Source: an uncultured Syntrophaceae bacterium (GTDB lineage: Bacteria > Desulfobacterota > Syntrophia > Syntrophales > UBA2185). Taken from it: 64,000 bases of DNA. The notes below the pieces were generated by a model that did no database searches, was not told the origin of the DNA, and saw only the letters and a list, made by a program, of their open reading frames with translations. Positions 6,811 through 36,088 of this stretch are shown here, one piece after another (positions within the stretch are counted from its first letter, which is position 1; every line of letters starts with the position of its first letter). The DNA is taken from positions 33,143 to 97,142 of the forward strand of contig CAZMBE010000001.1 of NCBI GenBank assembly GCA_964564625.1, in the 5' to 3' direction. The position numbers were made by a program, and so were the translations under genes.

Positions 6811-7989
6811 ATGCCAAAAATTATCAACCGTTACATTCTGAGAGAAATTTCTTATCCGTTCCTCATGATCGTTTTTGTTTTGACCTTTGTCCTGCTTATG
6901 GGGAAAATTCTCCAGTTAATGGATCTGATGGTTAATAAGGGCGTGAGTTTCATCGATATATCGAAACTATTTCTCTTGTTAACACCATCCTTTTTGATAT
7001 TAACCATTCCCATATCGCTGCTGATATCGATACTGATCGGCTTAGGCAGGTTATCAGGTGACAATGAAATAACAATTTTAAAGGCATCCGGCATAAGTTT
7101 ATACAAACTCATCCCTCCTGTTGCCTTCGCAACATTCATCGCCTTTATATTGACAGCCGTGATGAGCATCTTCTTCGTTCCCCATAGTCAATACGCAACG
7201 AAGAATCTGCTTTTTACCATCGCTAAGAAAAAGGCCAGCGTAGGTATAAAAGAAAAAGTATTCAATGATGATTTTAAGGGTATTCTCCTTTATGCGGACA
7301 ATATCCCCGTGCACGGTAATTACATGGAGGGCGTCATCATCTCAGAAGAAAGCATTACCAAAGAACCAAGCACCATTATCGCGAAGAGAGCGTATCTTGT
7401 ATCAGATCCTACAATGATGACGGTAACCCTGAGACTCGAAAACGGCAGTACGCACAGCGTCGATATGAAACAGAAGAATTATCGGAAAATGGATTTCAGC
7501 GTGTATGACATTAATCTCGATTTAGAATCCTCGCTTGGAGAAGAAAAGAAAGTCATAACAAAGAAGGTCTCCGAGATGACTATGTGGGAAATTGCTGAAA
7601 ATCTAAAAAAGGCCGGCGTAGAAGAAAAATTTTTCAGGGAGCTGTCCATTGAATTGAATAAGACAATCGCTACCCCCATTGCATGCATTGTCTTTGGTAT
7701 TCTGGGAATTCCCTTAGGCATAAGATCGCACAGAGCTGTAAAATCGAGGGGATTCACTGTGGGGATCTTTACAGTGTTTATCTATTACATCCTTCGTCTC
7801 GGCGGAGAGGCCCTTGCGTCAACCGGCAGGCTTTCGCCTTTTATTGGAACATGGGCTCCAAATATTATTTTCTGTATGGCTGGAACCTATCTTTTGATTA
7901 AGGCGGCGCAAGATAGACCTCTCAACATTCAGGCAATAGGCACCTTTGCAAAGAAGCTCATCGGCAAAAAAAAGGCCATTGATTCATGA
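6811..7989 (+). CDS. lptF: LPS export ABC permease LptF (YjgP/YjgQ family)
   Basis: From the ATG at 6811 the family-typical N-terminus reads MPKIINRYILREISYPF. The protein has 6 TM helices with a large periplasmic insert. It overlaps lptG (ATGA at 7986). Confidence 0.8.
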   Translation: MPKIINRYILREISYPFLMIVFVLTFVLLMGKILQLMDLMVNKGVSFIDISKLFLLLTPSFLILTIPISLLISILIGLGRLSGDNEITILKASGISLYKLIPPVAFATFIAFILTAVMSIFFVPHSQYATKNLLFTIAKKKASVGIKEKVFNDDFKGILLYADNIPVHGNYMEGVIISEESITKEPSTIIAKRAYLVSDPTMMTVTLRLENGSTHSVDMKQKNYRKMDFSVYDINLDLESSLGEEKKVITKKVSEMTMWEIAENLKKAGVEEKFFRELSIELNKTIATPIACIVFGILGIPLGIRSHRAVKSRGFTVGIFTVFIYYILRLGGEALASTGRLSPFIGTWAPNIIFCMAGTYLLIKAAQDRPLNIQAIGTFAKKLIGKKKAIDS

Positions 7990-9068
7990 CTATTTTAGAT
8001 CGCTATGTAACAAAAGAATTCATCGGTATATTTTTTCTCGTTCTCCTTTTGTTCACATCACTGTTCATGATCGTTGAATTTTTTGAAAGAATTAGAATGT
8101 TTTTGAGCCATAAAGCCTCTCTGTACCAGATCGTATCGTATCTTTTTTTCAGAATCCCGATGATTGTTTCACTGGTTATTCCGGCTTCAGTATTGCTCGC
8201 CTCTCTCATAGCCTTCAGCTCTCTCTCGAAAAACTGTGAAATTGTTGCCATGAAAGCGAACGGGATGAGTCTTTACAGAACATCACTGCCCGTGATTATC
8301 ACGTCTGTGTTGATTTGTGTCCTCGCCTTTCTTAACAGCGAATTCATTGCGCCATACAGTAACCAGAAGGCAGAACACATCAAATCAGTGGAAATACAAA
8401 AGAGGGAGCCTATGGGAACGTTCAAACAGAACCAGCTCTGGTACAGGGGCAAAGACGGCATTTACAATTTCAAGATGTTCGATCCACAAACGAATACACT
8501 ACAAGGAATTACGATAAACTATTTAGACAAGGACTTTACTTTGAAGATGCGGATTGACGCTGAAAAAGCCGAGTGGAAAGATGGGCAATGGGTCTTTTAC
8601 AACCTGTTGACCACTCGGTTCACGCAAGGTGACTTCCCCTCCCTCGAACATATTTCTACAAAAGTGATTGACCTCCCGGAAAAACCATCGGATTTCAATA
8701 TTATTCAAAAAAAAACCGATACTATGGGGTATGAAGAGCTTAGAAAGTACGTCAAAAAGATTCAATCCGAAGGATATGATGCCACACGTTATATTGTTGA
8801 TATGCATGGAAAGATAGCCTTTGCGCTCGTCAGCATCATTCTTGTCATTATTGGCATTTCATTTTCTCTCATGAAAACGGAACGGAGCGGCGGTATCATG
8901 CAGAGTATCGGGGTCGGCATTGTCATCGGATTTTCTTATTGGATTGTCCATGCCTTCGCCCTGTCTGTGGGCCGTTCCGGCACCATACCTCCTATGGTGT
9001 CAGCATGGTTTGCAAACGTTGTATTGGGCATCGCCTCCACGATCATGTTCCTCCGCGTCAAAACCTGA
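7986..9068 (+). CDS. lptG: LPS export ABC permease LptG (YjgP/YjgQ family)
   Basis: The N-terminus is MTILDRYVTKEFIG. The architecture parallels LptF, to which it is translationally coupled. Confidence 0.8.
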   Translation: MTILDRYVTKEFIGIFFLVLLLFTSLFMIVEFFERIRMFLSHKASLYQIVSYLFFRIPMIVSLVIPASVLLASLIAFSSLSKNCEIVAMKANGMSLYRTSLPVIITSVLICVLAFLNSEFIAPYSNQKAEHIKSVEIQKREPMGTFKQNQLWYRGKDGIYNFKMFDPQTNTLQGITINYLDKDFTLKMRIDAEKAEWKDGQWVFYNLLTTRFTQGDFPSLEHISTKVIDLPEKPSDFNIIQKKTDTMGYEELRKYVKKIQSEGYDATRYIVDMHGKIAFALVSIILVIIGISFSLMKTERSGGIMQSIGVGIVIGFSYWIVHAFALSVGRSGTIPPMVSAWFANVVLGIASTIMFLRVKT

Positions 9069-12810: not shown

Positions 12811-12811
12811 G

Positions 12812-14008
12812 CTAATTCACACGATTGAAATGAGAAAGGATTTGCTTGGCGGCTTTTGACACCGAGAAGGTACTCTCCAGAAGAGCCCGGGCATTCTTCC
12901 CTAAAAGACGGCGATACTCCTCGTCCCTCACCAATCGCCTGGCATGGGCGGCAAACAGGTCATCATCCCCATTCATGCACACCAACCCAGCCTGCCGGCC
13001 TTCCAGAATTTCTTTCAAATCATTGCCGGGATTAATGCTCGCCAGAATGGGTATTGAATGATACATGTAGCCAAGCATCTTACCTGGAAAATTCTGAGTT
13101 TTCAGACCACGATCGAGGGAGATTAAACCGACATCAAATTCGGAAAGCATGGACAAGTATTCTCTCTGTCCCACGGCGTCGTGTATGGCTATATTCATCA
13201 AACCCTTTGATGCAATGGCCGCCCTTAATCGCGGCACTTCACTTCCATCGCCAACCAAGAGAAAAAAAGCGGATTGCTCGTTACGAAGTGTGTCTGCAAG
13301 ACGAATAATATTATCCATGTCCTGGGCCACACCTATATTGCCACCGTAAAGAAAGACGACTTTTCCCTGTAATCCCAATCGTTTTCGATGCAAACCTTGC
13401 TGAATATTTTCTTCCCGCAACGAAGCCCAGTTATAAAACACCTCTAAATGATATTGTTTATCGAGACCATTTTCTTTGAAATAGTGCAGGTTCGCTGGCG
13501 ACTGAACTCCGATAATGTCTGCGGCTTCATAGTTTTGTCGTTCTTTAAATTTGAAATAATTATAAATTATACCTCGTGTCAAAAGACCGGCGTCCATTGC
13601 CCATTGCGGGAAAATATCTCTGAGAATCAAATACGATGGGCAAGAAAAAAGTTTCTTCAACCTTTTAACGACTGTCCCAAAGAAAATAGTGGGTGAATAG
13701 TAAATTATTAAATCACAGGGATTATGTTCAAAGAAACTTCTCCCTTTCTTCCAAATTATTTCTGAAAGTCTGGCTTCGTTGATACCTCTTATAATCCTGG
13801 ATGCTGTCTTTATTTTACCAGTGCGGACCCTCAAAACTTTGACACTGTTTTCACAGGATATTTCAGTATCTGTAAGAATATTTTCGTCAGGGGCGACAAC
13901 CACAGGTTCATGACCGAGGTGATGGAATTCTACAGCAAGATCATGAATAAGCTTGGCGCTTGCAATGGTACTGGGCAGATAATAAACGACAAGGAGCAAT
14001 ATACGCAT
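12812..14008 (-). CDS. Glycosyltransferase family 4, WbuB/WcaI-like (6-deoxy-L-HexNAc transferase candidate)
   Basis: GT-B fold with the N-terminus MRILLLVVYYLP. It lies immediately downstream of the FnlA/reductase/FnlC set, as WbuB typically does. Confidence 0.75.
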   Translation of the reverse strand: MRILLLVVYYLPSTIASAKLIHDLAVEFHHLGHEPVVVAPDENILTDTEISCENSVKVLRVRTGKIKTASRIIRGINEARLSEIIWKKGRSFFEHNPCDLIIYYSPTIFFGTVVKRLKKLFSCPSYLILRDIFPQWAMDAGLLTRGIIYNYFKFKERQNYEAADIIGVQSPANLHYFKENGLDKQYHLEVFYNWASLREENIQQGLHRKRLGLQGKVVFLYGGNIGVAQDMDNIIRLADTLRNEQSAFFLLVGDGSEVPRLRAAIASKGLMNIAIHDAVGQREYLSMLSEFDVGLISLDRGLKTQNFPGKMLGYMYHSIPILASINPGNDLKEILEGRQAGLVCMNGDDDLFAAHARRLVRDEEYRRLLGKNARALLESTFSVSKAAKQILSHFNRVN

Positions 14009-14058
14009 GTTTGTACTTGATATGAAATTGAATTAATATAGAACTATATGGTGGTTGG

Positions 14059-15186
14059 CTACTTATACCAAACCGTCCGATTTACATAATCGGTATAGCT
14101 CATGATGATACGTAAAACTTTCTGAGAAACATTGTTTGTATCGTAGTCAGATACTATTTTGAACGGCCTGGGTATATCGGCGTAGTGGGCAGTTACAATA
14201 TCAATCGAATTGAGGATCCTTTCCGACGTAAGACCGCACATGATCAGGGTTCCTTCATCCATTCCTTCCGGTCTTTCATGCATCAGGCGTATTGTCACGG
14301 CAGGGAAGCTCAAAATGGAAGATTCTTCAGTAATGGTACCGCTGTCGGAAATAACGCAATGGGCATGCATCTGCAATTTCACATAATCTAGAAAACCAAG
14401 GGGTTTTAAAAAGCGAATTCGATGATCCAATTCGTTCAAGCCAAGATTTTCCATGCGATTTCTGGTTCGTGGATGGGTAGATACGATTATAGGTAAATTG
14501 TATTTCTCTGCTAAGACCTTCATAGAATCGATAATATTAGAAAAATTGACATCGCTGTCTATATTCTCTTCCCTATGAGCACTGACCACAAAGTAACGCC
14601 CCGGTTCCAGTTGTAAACGATTCAATATATCCGACGCATCAATCTTTTGTCTGTAATAGGTAATGACCTCTTTCATTGGAGAACCGGTTTTGATGATCGT
14701 TTCCGGCCTCAAACCTTCCGCGAGGAGGTAGCGTCGCGCATGCTCTGTATAAGTCAGATTTATATCACTGATATGGTCGATTATTTTACGATTGATTTCT
14801 TCCGGTACCCGCTGATCAAAACAGCGATTACCGGCTTCCATGTGAAAGATGGGAATTTTACGCCGCTTGGCGGCGATGGCGGCGAGGCAACTGTTTGTAT
14901 CGCCCAGCAAAAGAAATGCGTCCGGACATGCTTTTACCAATACATCATCCATTAGGGAAATGACGTTGCCGATGGTATGAGCTGGGTTTTCGCCTACGGC
15001 ATTCAGGAAATAATCAGGCTTCCTAATGGACAACTGCTGGAAAAAAATCTCGTTCAGCTCATAATCGTAATTTTGACCTGAATGTACAAAAGTGTGCTCC
15101 GTATGCATATCGAGCTGATGAATTACTCTGCTTAATTTAATTATTTCTGGTCGGGTTCCAACAATTGTTAGTACTTTGAGGGCCAT
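14059..15186 (-). CDS. UDP-HexNAc 2-epimerase, non-hydrolysing (FnlC/CapG/WbvD type)
   Basis: The N-terminus is KVLTIVGTRPEIIKL. The motifs HMEAGNR and SDSG are present. The C-terminal extension ...VSQKVLRIIMSYTDYVNRTVW is typical of the CapG/FnlC subgroup. Confidence 0.85.
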   Translation of the reverse strand: MALKVLTIVGTRPEIIKLSRVIHQLDMHTEHTFVHSGQNYDYELNEIFFQQLSIRKPDYFLNAVGENPAHTIGNVISLMDDVLVKACPDAFLLLGDTNSCLAAIAAKRRKIPIFHMEAGNRCFDQRVPEEINRKIIDHISDINLTYTEHARRYLLAEGLRPETIIKTGSPMKEVITYYRQKIDASDILNRLQLEPGRYFVVSAHREENIDSDVNFSNIIDSMKVLAEKYNLPIIVSTHPRTRNRMENLGLNELDHRIRFLKPLGFLDYVKLQMHAHCVISDSGTITEESSILSFPAVTIRLMHERPEGMDEGTLIMCGLTSERILNSIDIVTAHYADIPRPFKIVSDYDTNNVSQKVLRIIMSYTDYVNRTVWYK

Positions 15187-15214
15187 AATCAGTCAACTTT
15201 CTTTTTTCAAAAGT

Positions 15215-16114
15215 TCATGCAATGTAAAAACTACGGTGAGCCAGGAAATCGTTGTGCATCATTTCAATCATTGTATCCCATGCAGGTGGTTGATAACCTG
15301 TCATTTCACGAAAAATGGTGGAATCCAGGGAGCGGTCCTGCACAAAGTCATCGTAAGGTTCGATCTCAATATCCTTGCCATACCGTTCCGCGACCAAACG
15401 GAGCAGATCATATTTGGAGACCGGTTCTGATGAAACGTGATAGATACCGCTTAATTCATGATTTGGCAAAACATGTACGCGAATAATCCTAGCAAGTTCT
15501 ATCGTAGGAAAGCCTGAGTATATGGCTTTGCGGAAACCGTGTATCTTTTTATTCTGGGCAAGAAACCATTCAATTAGCCCGTATCTACCTTTTAGTTCAT
15601 GTCCGATGATGGATGTCCTCAGGGTCACACAGTGGGGATAGGCGACCTCTCCAAGAAATTTCGTCCTGCCATAAATATCCTCGGCATTGGATTGATCATT
15701 TTCTGCATACATGCCCTTTTTCCCGTCAAAAACACAATCCGTGCTGATATGGATGAGACGAGCTCCGACAGTTTGGCTGATAAGAGAAATGCGATGTGGA
15801 AGTAGCGCGTTAACAGTAATCGCAGTAAGTGGATCTTCAGCAAGAGGGAGTTGTTTAATAATGCCAATGCAGTTGATCACAATATCCGGCTGGATAGACG
15901 CTAATGCACGAATAATGCTTTCTAAATAATTAGCATCAACACTATTTGGTAGAAATCGGACAAGCATATCTGCCGGAAAGTGCTTTTTCATACCCGTCAG
16001 GCTTCGCGCAGTGGTTGTCACATTATATTCCGGAAATGCGGAAAGATACCGTAAAAGTAAGTGACCTAACATGCCAGTGCCGCCGAGAATCAAAATCTTT
16101 TGCTGTCTACTCAT
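15215..16114 (-). CDS. RmlD-like SDR 4-reductase (single-domain; WbvR/FnlB-function candidate)
   Basis: 299 aa with Rossmann motif ILILGGTGMLG and YxxxK motif (YGRTK). No extra C-terminal domain is present. It sits between the FnlA-type and FnlC-type genes. Confidence 0.7.
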   Translation of the reverse strand: MSRQQKILILGGTGMLGHLLLRYLSAFPEYNVTTTARSLTGMKKHFPADMLVRFLPNSVDANYLESIIRALASIQPDIVINCIGIIKQLPLAEDPLTAITVNALLPHRISLISQTVGARLIHISTDCVFDGKKGMYAENDQSNAEDIYGRTKFLGEVAYPHCVTLRTSIIGHELKGRYGLIEWFLAQNKKIHGFRKAIYSGFPTIELARIIRVHVLPNHELSGIYHVSSEPVSKYDLLRLVAERYGKDIEIEPYDDFVQDRSLDSTIFREMTGYQPPAWDTMIEMMHNDFLAHRSFYIA

Positions 16115-16142
16115 ATAGCAGTCATCCTGAAAAAAACGTCCG

Positions 16143-17129
16143 TCAAATTTCCTTTTTCGTGACTTCAGATGCAGCCCACGCCATGTATTCCTGTAAGCCT
16201 TCCTCCATCAATATGGAAGGTTTAAAACCAAAGGAATGACGTGCCTCAGATATATCCGCCAAGCTGTGCCGCACATCTCCGGACCGCGGTGGTCCGTACA
16301 CCACTTGCGGTTCAATTCCCGAAACCACCCACAACAGTTGCACAAGCTTGTTAATCGTAATCCTGCCACCACTGCCGATATTGAATGCGCCAGACAAACC
16401 ATTCGCCATTGCAGCCTTAATATTGGCCTGAACCACATCTTTAACATTGATGAAATCACGGGTTTGCTCGCCGTCGCCGAAAATGGTCAGTTTTTCGCCA
16501 CGAAGCATCTGGAAGGCGAAAATCGGTATTACATTGCCGTAAGCATCGAACCGTTGATTAGGGCCGTAGACATTGAAATAACGTAGGCAGACTGCTTCTA
16601 AATCATAGAGTTTTGAATACGTTAGGCATTCCTTTTCCATACAAAGCTTCGAGCTACCATAAGGTGTATCTGGATCAACTGGATGATCTTCTTTAATGGG
16701 AATTGTTTTCAGTTCACCAAAAATCCCCGCTGATGAGGACGCTACAATCTTTCTGACACCTGCATGGCGCGCAGCTTCTAAAACTTTTAGCGTGCCCATG
16801 ACATTGATGTCGGCGTCAATAATAGGGTGATCTATAGAACGCTTGTTGCCCACAGAAGCCGCCAGATGAAACACCACTTCAACGCCCTTGATCGATTCAG
16901 CAACAATGACTTCATCGCGGATGTCTCCTTCAATAAAACGAATTTGCGGGAACGGATTAAGGTTTGAACGATAACCGGACAGGAGGTTATCGAGCACTGT
17001 TACCTCATGGCCGTCATCAACAAGTTGCCGAACTAAATTTGAGCCAATAAAACCAGCGCCGCCGGTTACGAGAAACTTCAATGGGAAGCCTTTCTTAGAG
17101 AAGTTTATTCTGGTGTCATTATTGCGCAA
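16143..17129 (-). CDS. NAD-dependent sugar-nucleotide epimerase/dehydratase (extended SDR)
   Basis: Rossmann motif VTGGAGFIGSNL and YxxxK motif (YGSSK). The tracked start at 17129 is a TTG. The alternative TTG at 17091 (LKFLVTGG) is equally plausible. Confidence 0.75.
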   Translation of the reverse strand: MRNNDTRINFSKKGFPLKFLVTGGAGFIGSNLVRQLVDDGHEVTVLDNLLSGYRSNLNPFPQIRFIEGDIRDEVIVAESIKGVEVVFHLAASVGNKRSIDHPIIDADINVMGTLKVLEAARHAGVRKIVASSSAGIFGELKTIPIKEDHPVDPDTPYGSSKLCMEKECLTYSKLYDLEAVCLRYFNVYGPNQRFDAYGNVIPIFAFQMLRGEKLTIFGDGEQTRDFINVKDVVQANIKAAMANGLSGAFNIGSGGRITINKLVQLLWVVSGIEPQVVYGPPRSGDVRHSLADISEARHSFGFKPSILMEEGLQEYMAWAASEVTKKEI

Positions 17130-17173
17130 ACGGGAGTCGGGAATTTTAAACTACTTATAGAATTCCACTTTCA

Positions 17174-18199
17174 CTATAAAACAATACTGCCCATTTCCAA
17201 AGATTCCTTTACCAAGTCGAGTTTCAACAGCAAATCAATCAGGCCATTCTCATCCAATTGCTGTGCATTGTGAGAATGGTAATCCTCATGGTCTGAAACT
17301 CCCGTTTCACCCTCAGTAAAATAGCAAGCGTAGTTGAGATCGCGGATGTCTGCAGGTATCCGGTAATAATCGCCCATATCTTCCGCACGGGACATTTCTT
17401 CCCGTGTCAGCAGCGTTTCATAAAGTTTTTCGCCATGACGTGTGCCAATGATGCGGATATCGTTGTCAGCGTTGAACAGTTTCTTCAACGTGCGGGCCAG
17501 TGTTTCAATGGTCGCTGCAGGCGCCTTCTGAACAAAAACATCACCCGGATGTCCGTTCTCAAATGCATACACAACAAGATTTACCGCGTCATTAATGGAC
17601 ATCATGAACCGGGTCATGTTCGGATCTGTAATTGTCAGTGGCTTCCCCGTCATAATCTGGCTGATAAAAAGAGGAATAACGGATCCCCTGGAGCCCATGA
17701 CGTTGCCATAGCGGGTGCCGCAAAAGATGGTCCCTGAATCACCGTGGGTCCGCGCTTTGGCGATCATCAGCTTCTCCATTAGCGCCTTAGACATCCCCAT
17801 GGCATTGATGGGATATACAGCCTTATCAGTGCTGAGCGTGATCATGTTCTTGATGTTGCAAGCTAATGCCGCTTTCATTGCGTTATCCGCGCCGATGGCG
17901 TTCGTCCGGATGGCCTCCAGGGGGAAGAATTCGCAGGACGGCACCTGCTTGAGTGCTGCTGCATGAAATACCATGTCCGCGCCCTGCATGGCAGGAAGAA
18001 GACTATCATAATCCCGGACATTCCCCAAATAAAACTTCACTTTCGGATTCCTCAGGGCATTGCGCATATCGTCCTGTTTTTTCTCGTCGCGCGAAAAAAT
18101 ACGGATTTCTTTGATATCAGTATCCAGAAAGCGGTTCAATACAGCATTTCCAAAGGTGCCCGTACCGCCAGTGATTAGCAGGACTCTGTCTTTAAACAT
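17174..18199 (-). CDS. UDP-GlcNAc 4,6-dehydratase/5-(3-)epimerase, FnlA/CapE/WbvB type
   Basis: The N-terminus is MFKDRVLLITGGTGTFGNAV...IRIFSRDEKKQ. The atypical MxxxK (MGMSK) replaces YxxxK, as in the CapE/FnlA subgroup. Confidence 0.85.
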   Translation of the reverse strand: MFKDRVLLITGGTGTFGNAVLNRFLDTDIKEIRIFSRDEKKQDDMRNALRNPKVKFYLGNVRDYDSLLPAMQGADMVFHAAALKQVPSCEFFPLEAIRTNAIGADNAMKAALACNIKNMITLSTDKAVYPINAMGMSKALMEKLMIAKARTHGDSGTIFCGTRYGNVMGSRGSVIPLFISQIMTGKPLTITDPNMTRFMMSINDAVNLVVYAFENGHPGDVFVQKAPAATIETLARTLKKLFNADNDIRIIGTRHGEKLYETLLTREEMSRAEDMGDYYRIPADIRDLNYACYFTEGETGVSDHEDYHSHNAQQLDENGLIDLLLKLDLVKESLEMGSIVL

Positions 18200-18564
18200 G
18201 ATTAAACCTCACTATTATAAAATCTTCATCTTTTTAATGTTCGATTCGCTGATGTTTGTGTGATGACGGTTAAAACAACTACAAGTTATGGATTACTATC
18301 GAAAGTAAACATCGTAACATATGTTATGTCGGACCCTGAATCGCGTTCAAGGCAGGCGCTGATAATCCTGCTTCGCATCCTTCCTCCGTGAGGACAGGCT
18401 TGATAAGGGTCACTGAGTCTTCTCAATAGAACCCGGCCCCTGCCCCGGACACCGATCTCGGATTTGCCAGGGTAATAATTCATATGTTCGTAGCGGCTTC
18501 TTGTTGCATTTGGTTAAAATGTACCAGCAAATTTAATATCAGCGGCGATACATAGATAAATTAG

Positions 18565-19347
18565 TTAAGATGTGCGGTAATTCTCATCAATGAGTGCGTC
18601 TTTTTCTCTTCTGTTTGGATAATTTATAAGTACGGCCCTGTAAATGCCTTTGAATACAAATAAGCTACCGGCGGCAGCACCAATAATCCCATACTGACTA
18701 ATTAATTGTCCAATATCCTTAAGCGACCCAGCGCCACCAAGTACAGTCATCGGAATGGTTATCTTTTTTCGGATTTTCTCAACTATCGAAAGATCATAAC
18801 CTTCCATAATACCGTCATTATCTATGGAATTAACTATTACCTCACCAACACCGAACTTTTCCAGTTGTATCGCAAACTTTATTGGACATTTTCCTGTTTT
18901 CTTTTTCCCATTATGTGTCCAGACCTCATAATTTCCATCTATTATTTTTTTCTTAATATCAATAACCACACATACACTCTGACTGCCAATTTGTTCTGCT
19001 ATTTCTGAAACCAGATTAGGGCTTTCTACCGCAGCAGAACTTATTGCCACTTTCTCAACGCCCAACCCAATTATTCTTTGTGCCTGTCTAACAGTCTTTA
19101 CACCACCACCGTAGCAGAGGGGCATTCGACATTCAGCAGCTAAATTTTCAATCATTCTAAAGTCCGGTTCTACGTTATGAGAAGTAGCATCAATGTCAAG
19201 GACCATCAATTCGTCAACTTCCTTTTCATTAAAGATCCGCACTGCATTAATAGGATCACCAATATATTTTGGTGCTCTAAAATTGACAGTCTTTATTAGT
19301 CCCTTGTTATGAACTAACAAACAAGGTATTATCCGTGGACGTAGCAT
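18565..19347 (-). CDS. HisF-like imidazole-glycerol-phosphate-synthase cyclase subunit paralog (WbuZ type)
   Basis: TIM-barrel HisF signature (RIIPCLLV..., DELMVLDI, GGG). It sits in a polysaccharide cluster beside HisH-like and WbuX-like genes, not in a his operon. Confidence 0.85.
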   Translation of the reverse strand: MLRPRIIPCLLVHNKGLIKTVNFRAPKYIGDPINAVRIFNEKEVDELMVLDIDATSHNVEPDFRMIENLAAECRMPLCYGGGVKTVRQAQRIIGLGVEKVAISSAAVESPNLVSEIAEQIGSQSVCVVIDIKKKIIDGNYEVWTHNGKKKTGKCPIKFAIQLEKFGVGEVIVNSIDNDGIMEGYDLSIVEKIRKKITIPMTVLGGAGSLKDIGQLISQYGIIGAAAGSLFVFKGIYRAVLINYPNRREKDALIDENYRTS

Positions 19348-19350
19348 TGA

Positions 19351-19965
19351 TTAAAGGTCGGCAAAGTTTTTAAGAAGTTGAACGCCACATTGATGACTTT
19401 TCTCTGGGTGAAACTGGACGCCAAAAATATTTCCTGAGCACACAGCGGATGCGAAATGACTGCCATAATGCGTTATTGCGAGCACATCTTCTTTTTTATT
19501 GCAGTGAAAATAATATGAGTGCAAAAAATAAAAGCGGGAGTCAAGATTAAATCCTCGGAATAAACTAGTTTTTGTAACAGGTTGCACATCGTTCCAACCC
19601 ATGTGAGGAAGATGTGTGCTGTGAGTCAATCTTGAATGGTCAATTTTTTTAACTACCCCGTCAATCCACCCAAGACCTGGTAAAGCTCCTTCTTCACTGG
19701 AACGGGCAAGTATTTGCATACCTACACATATACCAATTACTGGCACATTATCCTTTAATACAAGCTCGTCAAGTGTCTGCCGCATACCAGATTTCTCAAG
19801 TTGCTCCATTGCATTGTCAAAAGCCCCGACCCCAGGCAGAATGACTTTTGTGGCTGTTTTCAAATCATCGCTTTGTGTAGCAATATTGATGGGGATATTT
19901 AATTGATTATAGACATTTACAAATGCCCTAATATTTCCTAACCCGTAATTAACTATTGTTATCAT
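19351..19965 (-). CDS. HisH-like glutamine amidotransferase subunit paralog (WbuY type)
   Basis: Class-I GATase with the nucleophile elbow GICVGMQ and the C-terminal motif FHPEKS. It overlaps the upstream gene (ATGA at 19962). Confidence 0.85.
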   Translation of the reverse strand: MITIVNYGLGNIRAFVNVYNQLNIPINIATQSDDLKTATKVILPGVGAFDNAMEQLEKSGMRQTLDELVLKDNVPVIGICVGMQILARSSEEGALPGLGWIDGVVKKIDHSRLTHSTHLPHMGWNDVQPVTKTSLFRGFNLDSRFYFLHSYYFHCNKKEDVLAITHYGSHFASAVCSGNIFGVQFHPEKSHQCGVQLLKNFADL

Positions 19966-21104
19966 CTGATAACTCTTTTTTCTATTCCTAATAATTGCAT
20001 TACTTTTGTTCCCAAGGTTATTAAAGCCATGTTGTTTTTGTAATCACGGTAAGTCTTGTTCTCTCCTTCAAATAGTTCCTGAAACTCAGATACAGTTAAA
20101 TCTAATTTTTTTGCAACATACTCGAAGTCTTGCAACATTGTTTGCTCGTCTATTTCTGGTTTTGCTATTCGCTCAAGAGCCTCTTGACGGGTCATCTGGT
20201 TGGTTAAAATTAAACTTGAGAGGTGAGCTTTTCGCCTTTCATAGCCGAATTTTTTGGGAAGCCAAAAACACTCGACAAATCTTGTAAACCGAGATTCATG
20301 ATGCTTTTGGGCATAGCTCTGCCAACCAAAGCGATCAGTCAATTCCTGTATAGCAATTTTTTTTATATAAGGTACATAATTTAATGGTCTTACAACCCGA
20401 ATACCTTTTATGTAACCATAATATAACTTATATTTGAAAATATCCGCAGTTGGAAATGTTTTCAAAGGACGCTTTCCAAAGCGACGATGAATATCTCTCA
20501 CAAAACGCATGTCTGTTGGATAATAAGCCCCCCACTCATTTGGCTCACGAACACATTCCGTTGAATAGTTTGCCCCTGTTAAAATATATTTGAAGTTATT
20601 TTTTACGGCGAAGTTATAAAGAGATGAAAAAAAAGATAAATCCTGGGGAATATCAATATTAGCTAGTTGTGCTTTAAAGAATGCTAATTGCAAATCCTTC
20701 ATCTCTGACCAATCTATAACATCCGTATAAAGATCAAGCCCGAGTCCATCTACCAACCTTTGAATATTATTTGCAGATACCTGTGAATTCCAACCAGCAT
20801 CGACATGGAACAGAAGGGGCTTCAATCCTAATTTTTCCTTTGCTATATAAGCAACGTACGAACTATCGACGCCACCGCTAATGCCAATCAAACAATCGTG
20901 ATCGCGTCCTTGCCCATCTTTCTTAATCTTTTCAGTTACTTTTGCTAATTCCTTCTCTCCCTGATCATTTGGATGCCAGTTTGGCTTGATATTTTCATAG
21001 AAATTGCGGCAATAATCGCACCAACCTCTCTGATCAAAAGTGATATCGGGATCAGTGGTGTCCATTATACAGTTAGAACATATTTGAAATTTTTCAGTAC
21101 TCAT
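19962..21104 (-). CDS. N-acetyl-sugar amidotransferase (PP-loop ATPase; WbuX/LfnA/PseA family)
   Basis: An N-terminal Cys-rich zinc ribbon (CSNC...CDYC) is followed by the PP-loop GISGGVDSSY. The triad with HisH and HisF paralogs is the known acetamidino-sugar module. Confidence 0.8.
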   Translation of the reverse strand: MSTEKFQICSNCIMDTTDPDITFDQRGWCDYCRNFYENIKPNWHPNDQGEKELAKVTEKIKKDGQGRDHDCLIGISGGVDSSYVAYIAKEKLGLKPLLFHVDAGWNSQVSANNIQRLVDGLGLDLYTDVIDWSEMKDLQLAFFKAQLANIDIPQDLSFFSSLYNFAVKNNFKYILTGANYSTECVREPNEWGAYYPTDMRFVRDIHRRFGKRPLKTFPTADIFKYKLYYGYIKGIRVVRPLNYVPYIKKIAIQELTDRFGWQSYAQKHHESRFTRFVECFWLPKKFGYERRKAHLSSLILTNQMTRQEALERIAKPEIDEQTMLQDFEYVAKKLDLTVSEFQELFEGENKTYRDYKNNMALITLGTKVMQLLGIEKRVIR

Positions 21105-26082: not shown

Positions 26083-27501
26083 TTATGTATTTGCCGAGAT
26101 GGCCTTTATGATATAATTTGTATATGCATCAACATTTTCTTTGTCTTGCGGGGTGCAAAGAACTCCTTCAGAGTTGAAAACAGGCACAATATGCCCAGGA
26201 AAGCTCCCTGAAAGCCAGGTGCGCCAATAATTCAAATCCAACGTGTATTCTTTCTGCTGAAGTTTTTCAAAAAGATCCACTAATGAAAGCTGCGAGCTGA
26301 TGTCGCCTGCAAAAAGCATCTTCAAGCCCGGTGGGCGGCCCAACGCAATCGAAGGTTTTCCCAACACGGCGGCTTCATTAGAGGCTGTTCCGGCAAGCGT
26401 TACGGTAACCCTGGCGGCCAAGACAAGATTTGTAGAATCAACATCTGGTGATACAAGAACAATGTTTGGAATAGCCTTGAGCCTCCGGTAATAGTCAATG
26501 GGCCGCATGCCCTTCATTTTGGGGTTTTCCTTTACCAGAAGTTGCCATCCTGCCGGTAATGCCTGACTGACTATCCGACACATTTCAATTTGATCACGCA
26601 ACCAAGGGCTATACATCAAGATAGTAGCTTCCGGCTCCATATGCAAAGGTATGTAACATGAAGATGCTTTCAACGTTTTTAATGCATCGGTTGTTAGAAT
26701 ATCATATTTCGGTTCTGGATGTTTAAACCACCTTTGTGGCAACCTGTTTTTAATTGTTTGCAATGAAATGATTTTTGAAACTGGAAAATAACTGCCTGCC
26801 TTACGGTCCTGCTTATCACACGATAGTTCGTGATAGCGGCTACCCAGCCGCGTCCACAAAGGAGGAATGGCTTGTGGTTTCATGTATTCAATGCGTTTTT
26901 CAGCAGGAGTGTGAAGAAGCCGCCGGCATTCTTCAAGAAGCGCTTCCGCATTTCCTTCAAGGGGTACACTCCATGTTTCCCACGGTGTTTTGAGCGCAAT
27001 CACCCTGCCGGGTGGTAAACCGCAACCTACAAAAGAAAAATGAGCGCCGCCTCGGCTGTTTGCGAGCGCCCCAGCAAGCCAGTAAAAGAAATGATCATAC
27101 ATGGAACTGATAGACAACGTTCCTTCAGAAACGAGATGGTCAAGAACGACAAGATGTTTTCGTCCAAAAAGAACCGCATCCAAGCCATCTTCCGGCAAGA
27201 ATCTTTCGCTTTGAAGCATTAAATTAAAATTTGCACCTTGTTTCTCATATAGGAGGCGATCTATTTCAGAAAATCTTTCACCAGTAATTTCATACCCGCT
27301 AACTTTACCCAACTCTTCCGGCATGTAAATACATTCATAACCAGCCTGTTCGGCCCTCTCTATTGCCCACGAGAAAAACGTTACAAATCTAACGGGAATG
27401 TCACCAAGTTTTTCCTTAAGACTTTTTGCCAATTCAACATGAAAAAGGACTTGCCAGGGGCGGGTAAGGAACAAAATTTGCCTTACGGATTGGCTAGTCA
27501 C
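26083..27501 (-). CDS. Uncharacterised soluble transferase-like protein (possible GT-B / capsule-biosynthesis-like fold); NulO-transferase candidate
   Basis: The GTG at 27501 overlaps the stop of the wzx 3' fragment (GTGA), giving about 472 aa. The tracked start at 27555 lies inside wzx. The C-terminal half (YIPLHMEPE...VKENPKM...TLAGTASNEAAVLGKP) resembles nucleotide-sugar-binding halves of GT-B or capsule-synthesis enzymes. I cannot place it in a named family. Confidence 0.4.
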   Translation of the reverse strand: MTSQSVRQILFLTRPWQVLFHVELAKSLKEKLGDIPVRFVTFFSWAIERAEQAGYECIYMPEELGKVSGYEITGERFSEIDRLLYEKQGANFNLMLQSERFLPEDGLDAVLFGRKHLVVLDHLVSEGTLSISSMYDHFFYWLAGALANSRGGAHFSFVGCGLPPGRVIALKTPWETWSVPLEGNAEALLEECRRLLHTPAEKRIEYMKPQAIPPLWTRLGSRYHELSCDKQDRKAGSYFPVSKIISLQTIKNRLPQRWFKHPEPKYDILTTDALKTLKASSCYIPLHMEPEATILMYSPWLRDQIEMCRIVSQALPAGWQLLVKENPKMKGMRPIDYYRRLKAIPNIVLVSPDVDSTNLVLAARVTVTLAGTASNEAAVLGKPSIALGRPPGLKMLFAGDISSQLSLVDLFEKLQQKEYTLDLNYWRTWLSGSFPGHIVPVFNSEGVLCTPQDKENVDAYTNYIIKAISANT

Positions 27502-28783
27502 GTTTTTATATCCAGTGTTGTCAAATAATAAGAATAGGCCAAGGCAAATACACACAGAAATGCGCTCGCAATAAATCTAGCCCATGCAACTCCTTCAATT
27601 CCGAAACCTTTTTGAACAAGAATCAAACCTAATATCCATAACACAAGAATCGCAACAGCATATCCGATCATGAGCGGAATATTTCTTCTTACAACTGGGA
27701 TGATTACGCTGACACCAAAATAGACCAGGAATATACTGCCCAATGAGTAAATTTTTGCTGCCTCAATTCCATCTCTATAGTTGGGTAAAAAATTTTCAGT
27801 CATTGGGCCAATCAGAAAATAGCTTATGAGACATAATGGGACTACGGTAAGTATGTTAATAATTAAGCTGAAAAAAAAAACCCTTTTAAACCTAACGATG
27901 TCTTCGATGAACCGTAAATATATGATGCCCTCGGATAGAGCAGCGCTCCCATACTCACAGGCAGGATCTGAATGGCTGTAACAATCAGACCTGATAATGC
28001 CAATTGCCCAACAGCCTCCGGCCCCAACATAAAGGCTACAATGGTCCTGTCTGCTGCTGTAAAAAAAATATACAACACACCCGTTGCAAGCATGGGAAAA
28101 CCAACACGAGTTAAATCTGATATCTCGTCAATCCTTCCCATTGATCTATGCTTAACGGGGCTTTTGCGATACAACAAAAGAAAGTTAACCATAGGAAGCA
28201 CTGCGCTTCGAAAGATCAAACCGAAAGCGCCGAATACGATGGGAAGAAAACCAAGAACAAAATTTACTCCGTTAGCGATGTTAAGAAAGATCCCCAGAGA
28301 CATAAAGGCGCGGCAACCTCGGTATATTGTTTCGTAATGAGTACATATTGGTGAGAATATTAAAATTCCAAAAAGGATAGCAACAGAATATAAATATAAA
28401 TTTGCATAGCCATACATAAAGAAATAGATTAACGCGATGGAGGATATCACTATCCCAATAAGTGAGTTAATAATGGCGGTTAACCAACTCGCATCAACCA
28501 TGTCCTGTATCTTGACCTTGTTTTGTTGAGCATCATAAAAAGCTATATTTCGATTCAGACCATTAAACACGCCAAAATGAAAGAATGAGCAATAGACAGA
28601 TATAAGCATCACAGTTTGAATGACTCCCAATTCATAAGGGAGAAGGTATTTGGCTGCGATGATGCTTGTCAGAAAGCCGACCAGTGGTGTGCTGATCTGC
28701 GAAGCCAGGTAAACCAGATCGCCGTATCTCTGCCGGTTTAAAACATATAGATAGAAATATTTTTTTGCCGTACTAATACACAA
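27498..28783 (-). pseudogene. wzx: O-unit flippase Wzx (MOP superfamily), interrupted by a frameshift in a homopolymer
   Basis: Two consecutive polytopic ORFs (306 aa and 101 aa) lie in different frames. Adding one T to the T10 run (coding strand) gives the continuous hydrophobic read-through ...GFFFFSLIINILTVVPLCLISYFLIGPMTENF... The total is about 430 aa, the usual Wzx size. Confidence 0.7.
27871..27880. repeat. A10:T10 homopolymeric tract at the wzx frameshift site
   Basis: Read directly: ...aagctg aaaaaaaaaa cccttt... Confidence 0.95.
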
Positions 28784-33486: not shown

Positions 33487-34780
33487 GTCGGGGCCATTTT
33501 CCCGCGTCGTTGTTATTTTTTAGGTTTTATTGCTCTTTGACAACCTTGATTTCTCCCCGGATACCCCCGGAAAGGGGGCTCAGGGGATGCTCCCCCTATG
33601 TTGCAGCAATCATCTCCCGTTTTCTGAGATTCAGGACAACACGTTTAATGTTGAAGGCCATGGCTCCACAGAGATGATCCCAGTTCTCCTTGACGATGGT
33701 TGTGAACCGCGCCTTCCCGGCTCCATGATATGTATGCGTGATCCCAAAGTACTGCTCAATCTTATACCTGATCTTTGAGATTCTCTTGTTCCTCTGGATT
33801 TCAGCCTCCGTCAGAGAGGCATTGATCTGATTCTTCCTCATGATGCCGTCACGTATCCCGTTCATGTGTAAAAAGTCCCGGTTCGGTTCACCACAGTATC
33901 CCTTGTCGGCATACACCACAGGCGGCAGCGCTTTCCCGTGAATGCCTTTCGTTACGGTATAAGAAAAATACTTTGTATCATGCTCCGATGCCCTCGACAT
34001 ACAGGTGGACAATACAAGGCCACTCCCCACATCGATGGACACATGCTCCTTCATCCCGAAGACGGGTTTGTTGTGTTTCACCGTCCAGTCCGAATCAATG
34101 TCCCGCTGGAACCGCATGGCCTTCTGAGTCTTCTTTCTCATCTGCGCCCTGATCTTCCGCTTCTCTCGGAGTTCTCTGAGCTTCCTGTCACTGATGGGGC
34201 GGCTGGCCGATCTCACGACACGGGCATCCGCGGCCATGCCGGATTCAATGGAAAACCCCAGAGCATCACACTGATTCAGGAGCTCGTGATGAACCTTCTC
34301 CAGGGTCTCTTTCCTCGTGCGCTCACGAAAACGGCAGATGATTGAATGGTCCGGGGATGGCTCGCTGAAGGGTAATCCGATGAAGGCCTTGAAGGAGAAA
34401 CGATCATTGATCTGCCTCTCCAGATCAGGATCAGACTTTATCCCAAACCATTTCTGCATGAGGATCGCTTTCAGCAACATCAAGGGAGGATATGCCTTAT
34501 TCCCAAAGTCAGACTGCCCCACAGGATAGTTTTCCTGGACAATCTTCTCGATGGGATCCCAGTTAATGATGGCATCGATTTCTGAGAGGACTTGCCGGTT
34601 GCTGGAGTGGGTGACGGCTCGTTGTATTTCCATATCCAGGAATGTCGGTTTTGTATCGTATTCCTTGAATGCCATGGCGGTCTCCTTCAGCAAGAATGTT
34701 ACCGGAAGGCTACCATAAAATAATGTTATTGTCAAGTAATATCAATATGTTAAATGAATTTTAATCTAAATTCCCCCGAC
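33487..34780 (-). mobile_element. IS5-family insertion sequence (boundaries approximate)
   Basis: It contains the transposase gene. Its base composition differs from the flanks. The right limit is constrained by the end of the NeuC/LegG-like stub homology (about 34781). The only candidate terminal inverted repeat is gtcggggNNattt at 33487 and 34780, which is too short to be statistically convincing. No target-site duplication was seen. Confidence 0.6.
33596..34675 (-). CDS. IS5-family DDE transposase (InsH-like N-terminal domain + DDE_Tnp_1)
   Basis: The ATG at 34675 is preceded by the SD gaaggag. The translation reads MAFKEYDTKPTFLDM...PPLMLLKAILMQKWFGIKSDPDLERQINDRFSFKAFIG...ADKGY... with a ...YHGAGKARF... 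C-terminus typical of the IS5 group. Confidence 0.85.
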   Translation of the reverse strand: MAFKEYDTKPTFLDMEIQRAVTHSSNRQVLSEIDAIINWDPIEKIVQENYPVGQSDFGNKAYPPLMLLKAILMQKWFGIKSDPDLERQINDRFSFKAFIGLPFSEPSPDHSIICRFRERTRKETLEKVHHELLNQCDALGFSIESGMAADARVVRSASRPISDRKLRELREKRKIRAQMRKKTQKAMRFQRDIDSDWTVKHNKPVFGMKEHVSIDVGSGLVLSTCMSRASEHDTKYFSYTVTKGIHGKALPPVVYADKGYCGEPNRDFLHMNGIRDGIMRKNQINASLTEAEIQRNKRISKIRYKIEQYFGITHTYHGAGKARFTTIVKENWDHLCGAMAFNIKRVVLNLRKREMIAAT

Positions 34781-34914
34781 TCTGCCAGCGGGACTTGTGC
34801 AAAGATTTCAATCTGGCCCTTCAGATCGGAATTATTCAGAATATCCTTTATAACCCACTAGAGGCGGCCGTATTCGGCGCGTGTTCCTGGAACAAAACAG
34901 ATTTTTTCAGACAT
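34781..34914 (-). pseudogene. 5' stub of a NeuC/LegG-type hydrolysing UDP/GDP-HexNAc 2-epimerase gene, with an in-frame TAG, truncated at the IS
   Basis: Hand translation gives MSEKICFVPGTRAEYGRL*WVIKDILNNSDLKGQIEIFAQVPLAE. The KIxFVxGTRAEYG opening is the hallmark N-terminus of NeuC/LegG enzymes. The start overlaps the legC stop (ATGTCTGA). The TAG is at 34860-34858. The remaining ~330 codons are absent. Confidence 0.7.
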
Positions 34915-36088
34915 TCTCGTCTACCAGAAACGAGCTACTGGGTATATTTATGAGTCGTTTTGCTAGGTTTTCAGCACAGCCAAGCTCCATTGCCGGGCAT
35001 TTTTTGAACATGGATAATGTATGCATCAGCGTCCAGGCAGGGCGCACCATGATCCCGCTGTCGTTAGTTTTTTCAAGAATTAAGTCGCGCTTATCGCAAA
35101 GGTTCGTGTCCAGAAGAATCGTATTGAGCCAGTAATTACTCTTGGCAAAGGGGGGCTCTTTAAAGAATGTAATGCCTTTTATCTTCTGAAAAGCATTTTG
35201 ATAGCATTCTGCAAGACGCCTTTTTTGTTCCAGAAATTTTGGGAGCTGCTCCATCTGGGCGCACCCCAAGGCGGCATTGATGTTGGGAAGTCGATAGTTA
35301 TATCCGACATGATCGTGTCTATATTCCCACCGGTGGGGAATTTTTGCAGTTGATGTCAAATGCTTGGCCAGTTTGCCCAGTGCCTCATCATTGGTGATTA
35401 TCGCCCCCCCCCCTCCCGTCGTGATCGTTTTGTTTCCGTTAAAACTCAGACTGGACAATTTTCCCTGGTTTCCCGTGTGTCTTCCCTTATAGTATGAACC
35501 AAGGGATTCCGCGGCGTCTTCAATCACTTCGATTTTATATATCTTGCAGGTCTCAATGAGGGGATCGAGATCGACGGGATGCCCGAAGGTGTGCACCGGG
35601 ATGACTGCTTTGATCCTCCTTCCGGTAAATATGTTGGTGCAGCCGTTCGAATTTATCCGGGCGATGTTTTTGAGATGATCCTGAAGTTTAATAGGGTCGA
35701 GTCCCAGGGTTCTTTCTTCACTGTCCACAAAATGAGGAACGGCACCGCAATAGGTGACGGCGTTGGTAGTCGCTACAAAAGTTAACGCCGGAACCAGAAC
35801 CTCATCCCCGGTTTTAACCCCGGACAATATCAGGGCGATATGGAGGGCTGCAGTACCGTTAACCATGGCCACCGCTTTTTTAGAGCCCGTGAAGTCCGCA
35901 AGCATAGCCTCGAATTTATCCACATATTGCCCGATGTAGGAAACATAGGTAGAATCAAGACAATCCTTGAGATAAATCCATTCATTCCCGCACAAACACG
36001 GCTCATGCAGAGCGACGTGGCCTTTTTTGTCAGAAATGGCGCTTTTAATGGCGGTTATGATGGCGTTGATATCCAGTTGTGCTGTCAT
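34907..36088 (-). CDS. legC: PLP-dependent sugar aminotransferase, DegT/DnrJ/EryC1 family (LegC type)
   Basis: The PLP-lysine context is SFNGNKTITTGGGGAI. The protein is 393 aa and overlaps the upstream dehydratase gene (ATGA at 36085). Confidence 0.8.
   Translation of the reverse strand: MTAQLDINAIITAIKSAISDKKGHVALHEPCLCGNEWIYLKDCLDSTYVSYIGQYVDKFEAMLADFTGSKKAVAMVNGTAALHIALILSGVKTGDEVLVPALTFVATTNAVTYCGAVPHFVDSEERTLGLDPIKLQDHLKNIARINSNGCTNIFTGRRIKAVIPVHTFGHPVDLDPLIETCKIYKIEVIEDAAESLGSYYKGRHTGNQGKLSSLSFNGNKTITTGGGGAIITNDEALGKLAKHLTSTAKIPHRWEYRHDHVGYNYRLPNINAALGCAQMEQLPKFLEQKRRLAECYQNAFQKIKGITFFKEPPFAKSNYWLNTILLDTNLCDKRDLILEKTNDSGIMVRPAWTLMHTLSMFKKCPAMELGCAENLAKRLINIPSSSFLVDENV

Follow-up and report, generated by a model that had tools for sequence, protein, structure and literature searches.

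The question raised by this locus is whether a gene for a predicted polysaccharide flippase, which changes reading frame within a run of ten T residues, is broken or is expressed across the break. In the window (the whole 64-kb stretch of DNA analysed) the gene occupies positions 27498..28783 of the minus strand. Its zero frame forms an ORF of 306 codons with a TAA stop at 27865..27863 (27863..28783, minus strand), the TTG start of which aligns with the Met of homologues, and a second, ATG-started ORF of 101 codons (27803..27498, minus strand) encodes the C-terminal part. The initial annotation had taken the two ORFs as one gene interrupted inside a homopolymer, A10 at 27871..27880 on the plus strand, and the tract is as it described: the minus strand reads ...AAA GGG TTT TTT TTT TCA GCT TAA, and standard decoding passes two more codons after the final complete Phe codon before it meets a stop (TCA GCT TAA). 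No other A/T homopolymer in the window is as long as T10, and a single one reaches 9. Addition of one T gives an unbroken protein of 428 aa, and the hand translation previously given for 11 T, ...KGFFFFSLIINILTVVPLCLISYFLIGPMTENF..., was reproduced exactly. The 'immediate stop' predicted for 9 T is near rather than immediate, as a stop does follow but lies five codons past the tract (FFFQLNY, then stop). The 101-aa ORF lies within a longer −1-frame continuation, encoding predicted helices TM9-12, that begins at the tract's third T and has 126 sense codons before a TGA stop at 27500..27498 (27498..27878, minus strand). Also intact, as had been reported, is the GTGA in which the flippase stop and the start of the following gene overlap (27501..27498); that gene encodes 472 aa from a GTG start (26083..27501, minus strand).

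That the two ORFs together make up a single Wzx-like flippase gene of the MOP family was borne out by homology. The repaired protein scored 29.1 bits against Pfam PF01943 (Polysacc_synt) over residues 23-287, just above the cut-off of 28.2, and full-length homologues of 422-461 aa (63-78% identity) aligned with it colinearly from end to end; most of these homologues carry a precomputed PF01943 or PF13440 annotation. The sequence is nevertheless very divergent, with 13-19% identity to solved flippases, and the flippase found no family match in NCBIfam and no match at E≤1 in a sequence-profile search of the PDB. A fold model was made with AF2 for P0001, which stands in for the window protein; this homologue also has 428 aa and aligns with it gaplessly at 78% identity. 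It can be seen that the model (pLDDT 91.6) contains 12 long helices, and the top three Foldseek matches were MATE 6fhz, MurJ 6nc6 and WzxE 9g9p, with TM-scores of 0.69-0.71 that are normalised to the query and alignments that span 424-446 columns, i.e. the full length. The tract falls at residues 302-305, the start of the modelled helix 296-332 (TM9), and this helix is built from residues on both sides of the tract. Going by these helix boundaries, the product of standard decoding would consist of TM helices 1-8 only. On the sequence matches and the P0001 model we conclude that the gene is a Wzx-like MOP-superfamily flippase with the 12-TM, two-lobe MOP fold also seen in WzxE and MurJ (TM-scores about 0.7), and that its role in oligosaccharide transport is a predicted one.

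We found exactly T10, followed by the same −1 frame change, in 12 of 12 distinct lineages and in all 21 independent assemblies that represent them (the window lineage, L077, L078, which is the same as L013, L079, L080, L081, L082-84, L085, L086, L087, L088 and L012); likewise, six additional assemblies from the window lineage all had T10. The carriers share 61-82% amino-acid identity with each other and their synonymous sites are mostly saturated. The recurrence of an identical tract and frame change in 12 lineages as diverged as these is far beyond chance. Tract-length variants (T8, T9, T11 or T12) were absent from the 21 assemblies and 12 lineages, although all of this DNA comes from consensus metagenome assemblies, in which minority T11 subpopulations would not show. 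By comparison, among homologues encoded in a single frame, the tract was interrupted or missing in all five lineages (six loci) for which the DNA was read: the sites were TTT TTC TTT TTT, TTT TTC TTT TTG, TTT TTT TGG TTT, GTT CTT ATT CTA and ATT CTC ATT ATC, with loci L008 and L009 identical at the site. In a neighbour-joining tree, which is crude, the T10 lineages were interleaved with the in-frame ones, and the clade's most basal member has T10. The wobble positions of the Phe codons in the tract were T in 36 of 36 cases (P about 8e-7, assuming independence), whereas ten other invariant Phe columns were 68% TTT and none of them was all TTT. Third-position entropy showed its sole deep minimum at the tract and returned to background within about 6 codons.

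The reading frame beyond the tract was conserved as well. None of 13 sequences had a stop in the −1 frame past the tract, while the zero frame there contained 9-18 stops. The −1 frame remained open for 127-130 codons in all 11 sequences whose contigs reach the C-terminus, and the C-terminus was conserved in every lineage whose contig extends that far; for L078 and L013, where the contigs end early, 104 codons were recovered, again with no −1-frame stop. The pN/pS ratio was 0.25 upstream of the tract, 0.22 for the bridge of 22 codons directly past it and 0.24 for the remainder downstream. Between T10 carriers dS ranged from about 0.3 to saturated, and dN/dS was about 0.1-0.2 both upstream and downstream. 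The substitution pattern indicates that the −1 frame evolves as protein-coding sequence, under purifying selection from the tract onward. The zero-frame tail past the tract, on the other hand, is short and differs among lineages (SA, SV, an immediate stop or a tail of 18 codons).

The three readings offered by the initial annotation (sequencing error, fresh pseudogene and slipped-strand ON/OFF switch) did not include programmed recoding, which is the best fit to the data. We consider it likely that the break is a conserved programmed recoding site and that the gene is functional. From the conserved tract, frame change and trans-frame coding sequence we infer the molecular step (RNA polymerase or ribosome), its efficiency and its regulatory purpose as follows. 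Standard expression would end just past the tract and give the truncated TM1-8 product, and some expression events would change to the −1 frame on U10 and give the full 12-TM flippase of 428 aa (...KGFFFFSL...). The tract would act as a fixed throttle and not as a heritable switch, keeping the ratio of full-length flippase low. Since the flippase stop and the GTG start of the 472-aa gene overlap, translation of this gene is probably coupled to that of the frameshifted frame; an ATGA or GTGA overlap of this kind was kept in most T10 and in-frame lineages, and through it slippage probably gates translation of the next gene too.

For the main route of recoding we lean towards transcriptional slippage, in which RNA polymerase would realign on the 10-nt homopolymer and insert one untemplated U. 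Bacterial RNA polymerase slips efficiently on 9-nt runs of A or T and has an RNA:DNA hybrid of 9-10 bp (PMC5009743), a length that the 10-nt run would match; T10 also lies within the range expected of a slippage site (an uninterrupted A or T stretch on the coding strand, about 9 nt or longer). Baranov et al. (2005, PMC1088944) regard slippage as functional where the same ORF organisation is found in two or more homologues that are not identical, and here both the run and the two-ORF organisation are kept across 12 lineages. Against this route, the same authors note that some AT-rich bacteria appear to suppress slippage.

A potential alternative that would give the same protein from a faithful U10 mRNA, and so a sub-variant of recoding, is −1 programmed ribosomal frameshifting. 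The zero frame reads the tract as UUU UUU UUU U, within which U_UUU_UUU (T3-T9) forms a perfect X_XXY_YYZ heptamer in 12 of 12 lineages; the tRNA-Phe molecules in the P and A sites would slip back by one base and continue with UUC AGC UUA. The shift that is needed is indeed −1, and the conserved wobble T residues fit this route as they fit polymerase slippage, the two being inseparable by sequence because either needs every T of the tract. However, no downstream hairpin or pseudoknot is conserved: RNAalifold over −60/+80 nt in the 12 lineages returned −1.6 kcal/mol with trivial purine/U pairing and no compensatory pairs, and there was no terminator-like hairpin adjoining the U run. Nor was there a conserved Shine-Dalgarno-like element 10-14 nt upstream. 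An upstream AAGACATC motif, considered as a T10-specific signal, was rejected since in-frame relatives have it too, which marks it as a coding signal. The missing stimulatory structure, together with synonymous constraint that is confined to the tract, fits slippage by RNA polymerase, for which no stimulator is needed and a 10-nt homopolymer is already sufficient. We therefore regard ribosomal frameshifting as somewhat unlikely to be the main route, though slippage of two tRNA-Phe may contribute.

Slipped-strand phase variation, the switch proposed by the initial annotation, would treat T10 as a heritable OFF state from which replication slippage to T11 (or T8) restores ON. A 10-nt homopolymer inside an ORF is mutable at the DNA level, surface-polysaccharide genes are a classic class of contingency locus (PMC3711429), and purifying selection downstream of the tract would also be expected if ON cells were regularly selected; a second long homopolymer, G10, lies in-frame in a neighbouring aminotransferase gene. 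In the contingency loci of Campylobacter, Neisseria and Haemophilus an intragenic homopolymer likewise sets the frame of a surface-glycan gene, but those tracts are mostly poly-G/C and vary in length between and within strains, whereas the flippase tract was an invariant 10, with an ON length in none of the 21 assemblies or 12 lineages and no change of length despite saturated synonymous divergence. A search of 5.8 billion proteins also did not contain the 428-aa T11 version of any T10 lineage, and the in-frame lineages have destroyed the tract instead of carrying T11. On general grounds a flippase is, moreover, a poor step at which to place a clean OFF switch: a block at Wzx while the upstream transferases are active traps undecaprenyl-phosphate intermediates and is harmful. 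Part of the proposal stands, in that the tract is of a mutable kind, but a heritable switch now appears improbable.

It is also highly improbable that the locus is a split gene in which the 306-aa N-terminal part and a separately initiated C-terminal fragment assemble into a transporter. The ATG-started 101-aa ORF of the window would suit such an arrangement, and in several lineages gene callers predict an ORF of 60-127 aa for the C-terminal part; however, they give none downstream in L080, L081 and L085, and the stretch from the tract to the C-terminal ORF has no conserved start codon, with ATGs at 12-70 codons depending on the lineage (the first at codon 70 in L086, 58 in L082 and 13 in L088). 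The 22 codons from the tract to the ATG of the window, which form part of TM9, are themselves under purifying selection in the −1 frame. Finally, an assembly or sequencing error (a true T11) or a recently inactivated pseudogene is effectively refuted, for although homopolymers are error-prone and one genome could not have excluded error, assemblies from different projects and unrelated samples (MEGAHIT, SPAdes-style, JGI and Logan) gave the same T10, and the frameshift is older than divergences with dS>1 and is followed by a frame that has no stops and has stayed under selection.

Programmed recoding at a homopolymer has well-characterised counterparts. In Shigella flexneri mxiE, one untemplated nucleotide at a T run fuses two overlapping ORFs, function resides in the longer trans-frame product and the adjoining downstream gene is affected (PMC1088944; PMC5009743), as we propose here. 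MxiE is, however, a soluble transcription activator encoded on a virulence plasmid, whereas the flippase is a polytopic membrane protein whose gene lies in a polysaccharide locus on the chromosome of uncultured anaerobes; the flippase run is T10 and is conserved over much deeper divergence, with slippage in this case inferred from sequence. The tssM gene (A11) of Citrobacter rodentium and Yersinia pseudotuberculosis is comparable in that a membrane-protein gene is interrupted right past a homopolymer, slippage yields full-length beside truncated protein and the arrangement is kept in a second species (PMC4256274). It differs in having poly-A rather than poly-T, and both TssM length variants were shown to be needed, whereas the zero-frame tail of the truncated TM1-8 flippase is not conserved. 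The dnaX gene, like that of the flippase, is cellular and non-mobile and has a homopolymer recoding site that is deeply conserved; the same outcome can be reached there via the ribosome (−1 frameshifting at A_AAA_AAG in E. coli) or the polymerase (A-run slippage in Thermus and Chlorobi-type dnaX). The recoded dnaX product is shorter and that of the flippase longer, and E. coli dnaX has strong stimulators (a Shine-Dalgarno-like element and a hairpin), whereas the flippase gene has no conserved one.

Deeply conserved programmed frameshifts in ordinary bacterial genes, neither mobile nor of phage origin, are few: dnaX, prfB, mxiE/spa, tssM and a handful more. The flippase would be a new example of this known type of recoding and, if confirmed, would bring into the list a polytopic membrane transporter that serves surface-glycan export; all carriers of the site that were found are uncultured anaerobes, a part of which are Syntrophaceae-like or Desulfobacterales-like, and the conservation signal (12 lineages, saturated dS, invariant T10) is unusually clean. 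No earlier report of recoding in a flippase gene was found in the literature: a search on flippase or wzx with transcriptional slippage or homopolymer frameshift gave nothing relevant, and neither the main text nor the supplements consulted of the GeneTack cluster paper mention flippase or polysaccharide, these supplements also having no entry for O-antigen, Polysacc_synt or PF01943. In annotation pipelines such genes end up either as pseudogenes or as two entries, a truncated flippase and an orphan ORF, which is why protein databases contain many 306-aa 'flippases'; metabolic or serotype inference based on MAGs would mistake the locus for a defective one.

As to why the frameshift has been kept, it could be maintained by constraint as a tolerated 'rescued indel' rather than as an adaptive regulator, since the in-frame relatives show that a flippase works without recoding. 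We think it rather unlikely that U10 is an adaptive rheostat that sets expression of the full-length flippase and of the downstream genes, and/or that the truncated TM1-8 half-transporter is functional itself. If there were such a rheostat, the frequency of slippage might follow the UTP level or the elongation rate, and coupling through ATGA/GTGA, possibly with polarity over the untranslated 370 nt, might tune the downstream putative glycosyltransferase/polymerase/glycosyltransferase genes, so that export of a nonulosonic-acid glycan would be tied to nucleotide supply. A role of its own for the half-transporter would parallel the two TssM length variants. Whatever its purpose, the tract is a compact natural cassette in which polymerase and ribosomal slippage on a U run can be compared, and through it one can ask why a cell should throttle the dosage of its flippase.

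The surroundings of the gene are consistent with its assignment. It is flanked by predicted genes for NeuB, a PglD-like acetyltransferase, a CBS-NTP-transferase, CTP_transf_3 and two GT4 glycosyltransferases, and a Wzy-like polymerase call in the locus was weak (TIGR04370, 24.1 bits, under the cut-off of 40). By this predicted gene content the flippase gene lies in a Wzx/Wzy-type polysaccharide locus, among genes for nonulosonic-acid synthesis, glycosyltransferases and a Wzy-like polymerase. The 472-aa downstream gene had no Pfam or NCBIfam match at E≤0.001, the faint one to PF05159 (Capsule_synth) having E=0.18. Rfam at gathering thresholds found nothing in the whole window, and complete E. 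coli genomes had no megablast match to the region. By exact-sequence look-up, FolC, Map and an MBL hydrolase fell into clusters at ≥90% that bear the name 'Syntrophaceae bacterium', an indirect pointer to the source organism. A scan of genome contigs for homologues returned one locus only, an in-frame homologue in a Desulfobacterales MAG with 63% identity.

A run of ten T residues (T10) lies on the minus strand of the window at 27880..27871, in the context ...TTA AAA GGG TTT TTT TTT TCA GCT TAA..., and separates two minus-strand ORFs in different frames: one of 306 codons (28783..27863), ending two codons past the last full Phe codon, and an ATG-started one of 101 codons (27803..27498). In conceptual translation, inserting one T gave an uninterrupted 428-aa protein with the junction ...KGFFFFSLIINILTVV..., and removing one T gave FFFQLNY*. 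The initial annotation had therefore described accurately a flippase gene split at T10 and restored by 11 T, as well as the GTGA overlap (27501..27498, minus strand) between the flippase stop and the GTG start of the next, 472-aa gene. Alignment of the repaired protein to a flippase profile bore out its family assignment narrowly, at 29.1 bits against a Pfam Polysacc_synt threshold of 28.2.

The structure was modelled on P0001, a 428-aa homologue that is 78% identical to the repaired protein in a gapless alignment. AlphaFold2 gave twelve long helices with a pLDDT of 91.6, and the top Foldseek matches in the PDB were MATE (6fhz), MurJ (6nc6) and the lipid III flippase WzxE (9g9p), with query-normalised TM-scores of 0.69-0.71 over the whole length. 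The tract corresponds to residues 302-305 in this model, at the start of helix 296-332 (TM9), so that standard decoding is predicted to yield TM1-8 only, without the four C-lobe helices. The zero-frame tail past the tract (in the frame of the upstream ORF) is short and not conserved among lineages, making a dedicated role for it less likely.

When 5.8 billion proteins were searched with this repaired protein as query, the hits were full-length homologues of 422-461 aa (63-78% identity) and about ten proteins of some 306 aa (61-82% identity). Nearly all of the latter end in ...FFFSV or ...FFFSA, the exceptions being P0026 (...RRFFF) and P0023 (14 residues more). DNA was obtained for the truncated homologues and for related JGI contigs. 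At the corresponding site all truncated homologues carry a tract of exactly T10, between flanks that differ at many positions. The tract, compared among relatives as initially proposed, is thus T10 in 12 of 12 truncated lineages (the window and the relatives' loci or contigs L077, L078=L013, L079, L080, L081, L082-84, L085, L086, L087, L088 and L012). It is interrupted or absent in the in-frame relatives with readable DNA: TTT TTC TTT TTT AGT in L008/L009, TTT TTC TTT TTG AGT in L089, TTT TTT TGG TTT in L001, GTT CTT ATT CTA in L010 and ATT CTC ATT ATC in L011. T10 and in-frame lineages are interleaved in a crude neighbour-joining tree in which the most basal clade member, L088, is T10; this suggests an ancient T10 state with several losses, repeated gains being less likely.

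Wobble positions within the tract are T in 36 of 36 cases across the 12 lineages. At ten other invariant Phe columns of these lineages TTT accounts for 68% of codons and no column is all-TTT (wobble-T excess, P ~8e-7 with lineages treated as independent). Third-position entropy along the gene has one deep minimum, at the tract, and is back to background within about six codons. Judged by this codon usage, selection acts on the T10 tract itself.

With respect to the upstream frame, the downstream one lies at −1, equivalent to one extra mRNA nucleotide, and two known processes lead to the same protein, ...FFFFSL.... RNA polymerase would slip on the U10 run and add one U or, alternatively, the ribosome would slip −1 on U_UUU_UUU. 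Polymerase slippage is favoured, because neither a conserved RNA structure nor a Shine-Dalgarno-like stimulator was found around the tract, nor a hairpin adjoining the U run; sequence alone cannot decide between polymerase and ribosome. Precedents for slippage are mxiE, in which an additional nucleotide at a run of U's joins two ORFs, tssM (at A11) and Thermus dnaX. Bacterial RNA polymerase slippage is efficient at runs of 9 A or T, with an RNA:DNA hybrid of 9-10 bp (PMC5009743). The same ORF organisation in non-identical homologues, used as a slippage criterion in PMC1088944, recurs twelve-fold.

Slipped-strand phase variation, the ON/OFF switch of the initial annotation, is possible in principle, as a T10 run is mutable and minority lengths would be hidden in consensus assemblies. 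However, none of the 12 lineages has a length polymorphism or an ON-length allele in such assemblies, the in-frame lineages have lost the tract instead of carrying T11, and T10 persists despite a presumably steady mutational supply of T11. A block of Wzx, moreover, traps undecaprenyl-linked intermediates and is harmful.

Eleven sequences lie on contigs that extend to the C-terminus, and in every one of them the −1 frame stays open from the tract for 127-130 codons and ends in a conserved ...YSYYLTTLDIK. The contigs of L078 and L013 end earlier, and no stop interrupts the −1 frame in the 104 codons available there; the zero frame contains 9-18 stops in this region. Among T10 lineages dS extends from ~0.3 to saturation and dN/dS is ~0.1-0.2 both before and after the tract, with a mean pN/pS of 0.25 upstream, 0.22 in the first 22 codons past it and 0.24 in the rest. 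No downstream ATG is conserved, the first lying at codon 12, 13, 17, 18, 22, 26, 58 or 70 depending on lineage, and in three lineages gene callers report no downstream ORF. These patterns indicate that the C-terminal part is read through from the tract with no start of its own, which makes a split gene with a separately initiated C-terminal part unlikely and excludes the fresh pseudogene considered initially. Sequencing or assembly error is excluded by the uniform T10 in 21 independent assemblies built from ENA, JGI and Logan data of unrelated projects (six being further assemblies of the window lineage), with no T9, T11 or T12 among these consensus sequences of the 12 lineages and no 428-aa T11 version of any T10 lineage in the protein search.

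The frameshift site would cap the amount of full-length flippase. Unshifted ribosomes would terminate ~370 nt before the overlapping start of the next gene, so expression of that gene may also depend on the shift. The site may serve adaptively as a throttle, or it may be a rescued indel kept by constraint. Programmed A/T-homopolymer slippage is already known; full-text literature searches that paired transcriptional slippage or homopolymer frameshifting with flippase or wzx gave nothing relevant, neither 'polysaccharide' nor 'flippase' occurs in the main text or accessible supplements of the GeneTack paper on recoding clusters, and we found no description for this flippase family or organism group. 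In the protein databases (P0007, P0015-P0023, P0026), many 302-338-aa 'Polysacc_synt' entries and orphan 60-127-aa ORFs are in fact halves of the recoded gene, a systematic gene-calling artefact across the family.

The window, with lptF, lptD, cysS, folC and secY, comes from the chromosome of a Gram-negative bacterium. Three of the housekeeping proteins belong to clusters at >=90% identity that carry the name 'Syntrophaceae bacterium' (MAGs), which suggests an uncultured anaerobe and not a pathogen associated with a host. The window's sole other A/T homopolymer of at least nine, an A9 run (8707-8715), is in frame within an intact plus-strand ORF (7986..9068) that comes after lptF and is probably lptG. 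The flippase gene belongs to a large locus for surface polysaccharide. On its upstream side NeuB, a PglD-like acetyltransferase, a CBS-nucleotidyltransferase and a cytidylyltransferase jointly indicate nonulosonic-acid synthesis; downstream are the conserved 472-aa protein (26083-27501, minus strand), a weak Wzy-like polymerase match and two GT4 glycosyltransferases. Homologues of ~470 aa are encoded in L004, L008, L010, L011, L079-L081, L085, L089 and L012, and the gene lies 3' of the flippase in nearly all related loci that reach far enough. An ATGA or GTGA overlap between the two genes is usual in both T10 and in-frame lineages and absent in L086 and L088. The ~470-aa protein matched no Pfam or NCBIfam family beyond a faint PF05159 Capsule_synth hit (E=0.18), and may be a glycosyltransferase for the nonulosonic acid. 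In the T10 lineage L087 its homologue (3843-4235) stops after 130 codons though the contig runs on, and may be a genuine pseudogene or contain a second frameshift.

An IS transposase ORF (DUF772 + DDE_Tnp_1; 33596-34735, minus strand) is inserted inside the locus, with the cytidylyltransferase gene on one side and aminotransferase and dehydratase genes on the other. A G10 run (35404-35413, minus/coding strand; ACG GGA GGG GGG GGG GCG, T-G-G-G-G-A) is in frame within an intact DegT-type aminotransferase ORF (34907..36088), also part of this locus; phase variation or slippage is classically associated with poly-G tracts as long as this. Sugar-modification genes form a further block (9331-21104, minus strand), upstream of the one that holds the flippase gene. 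It contains a PseB/FnlA-like dehydratase with a sugar-transferase-like N-terminus fused to it, together with HisH/HisF-like and amidotransferase-like ORFs as judged from translations, and the locus may thus be responsible for more than one unusual sugar.
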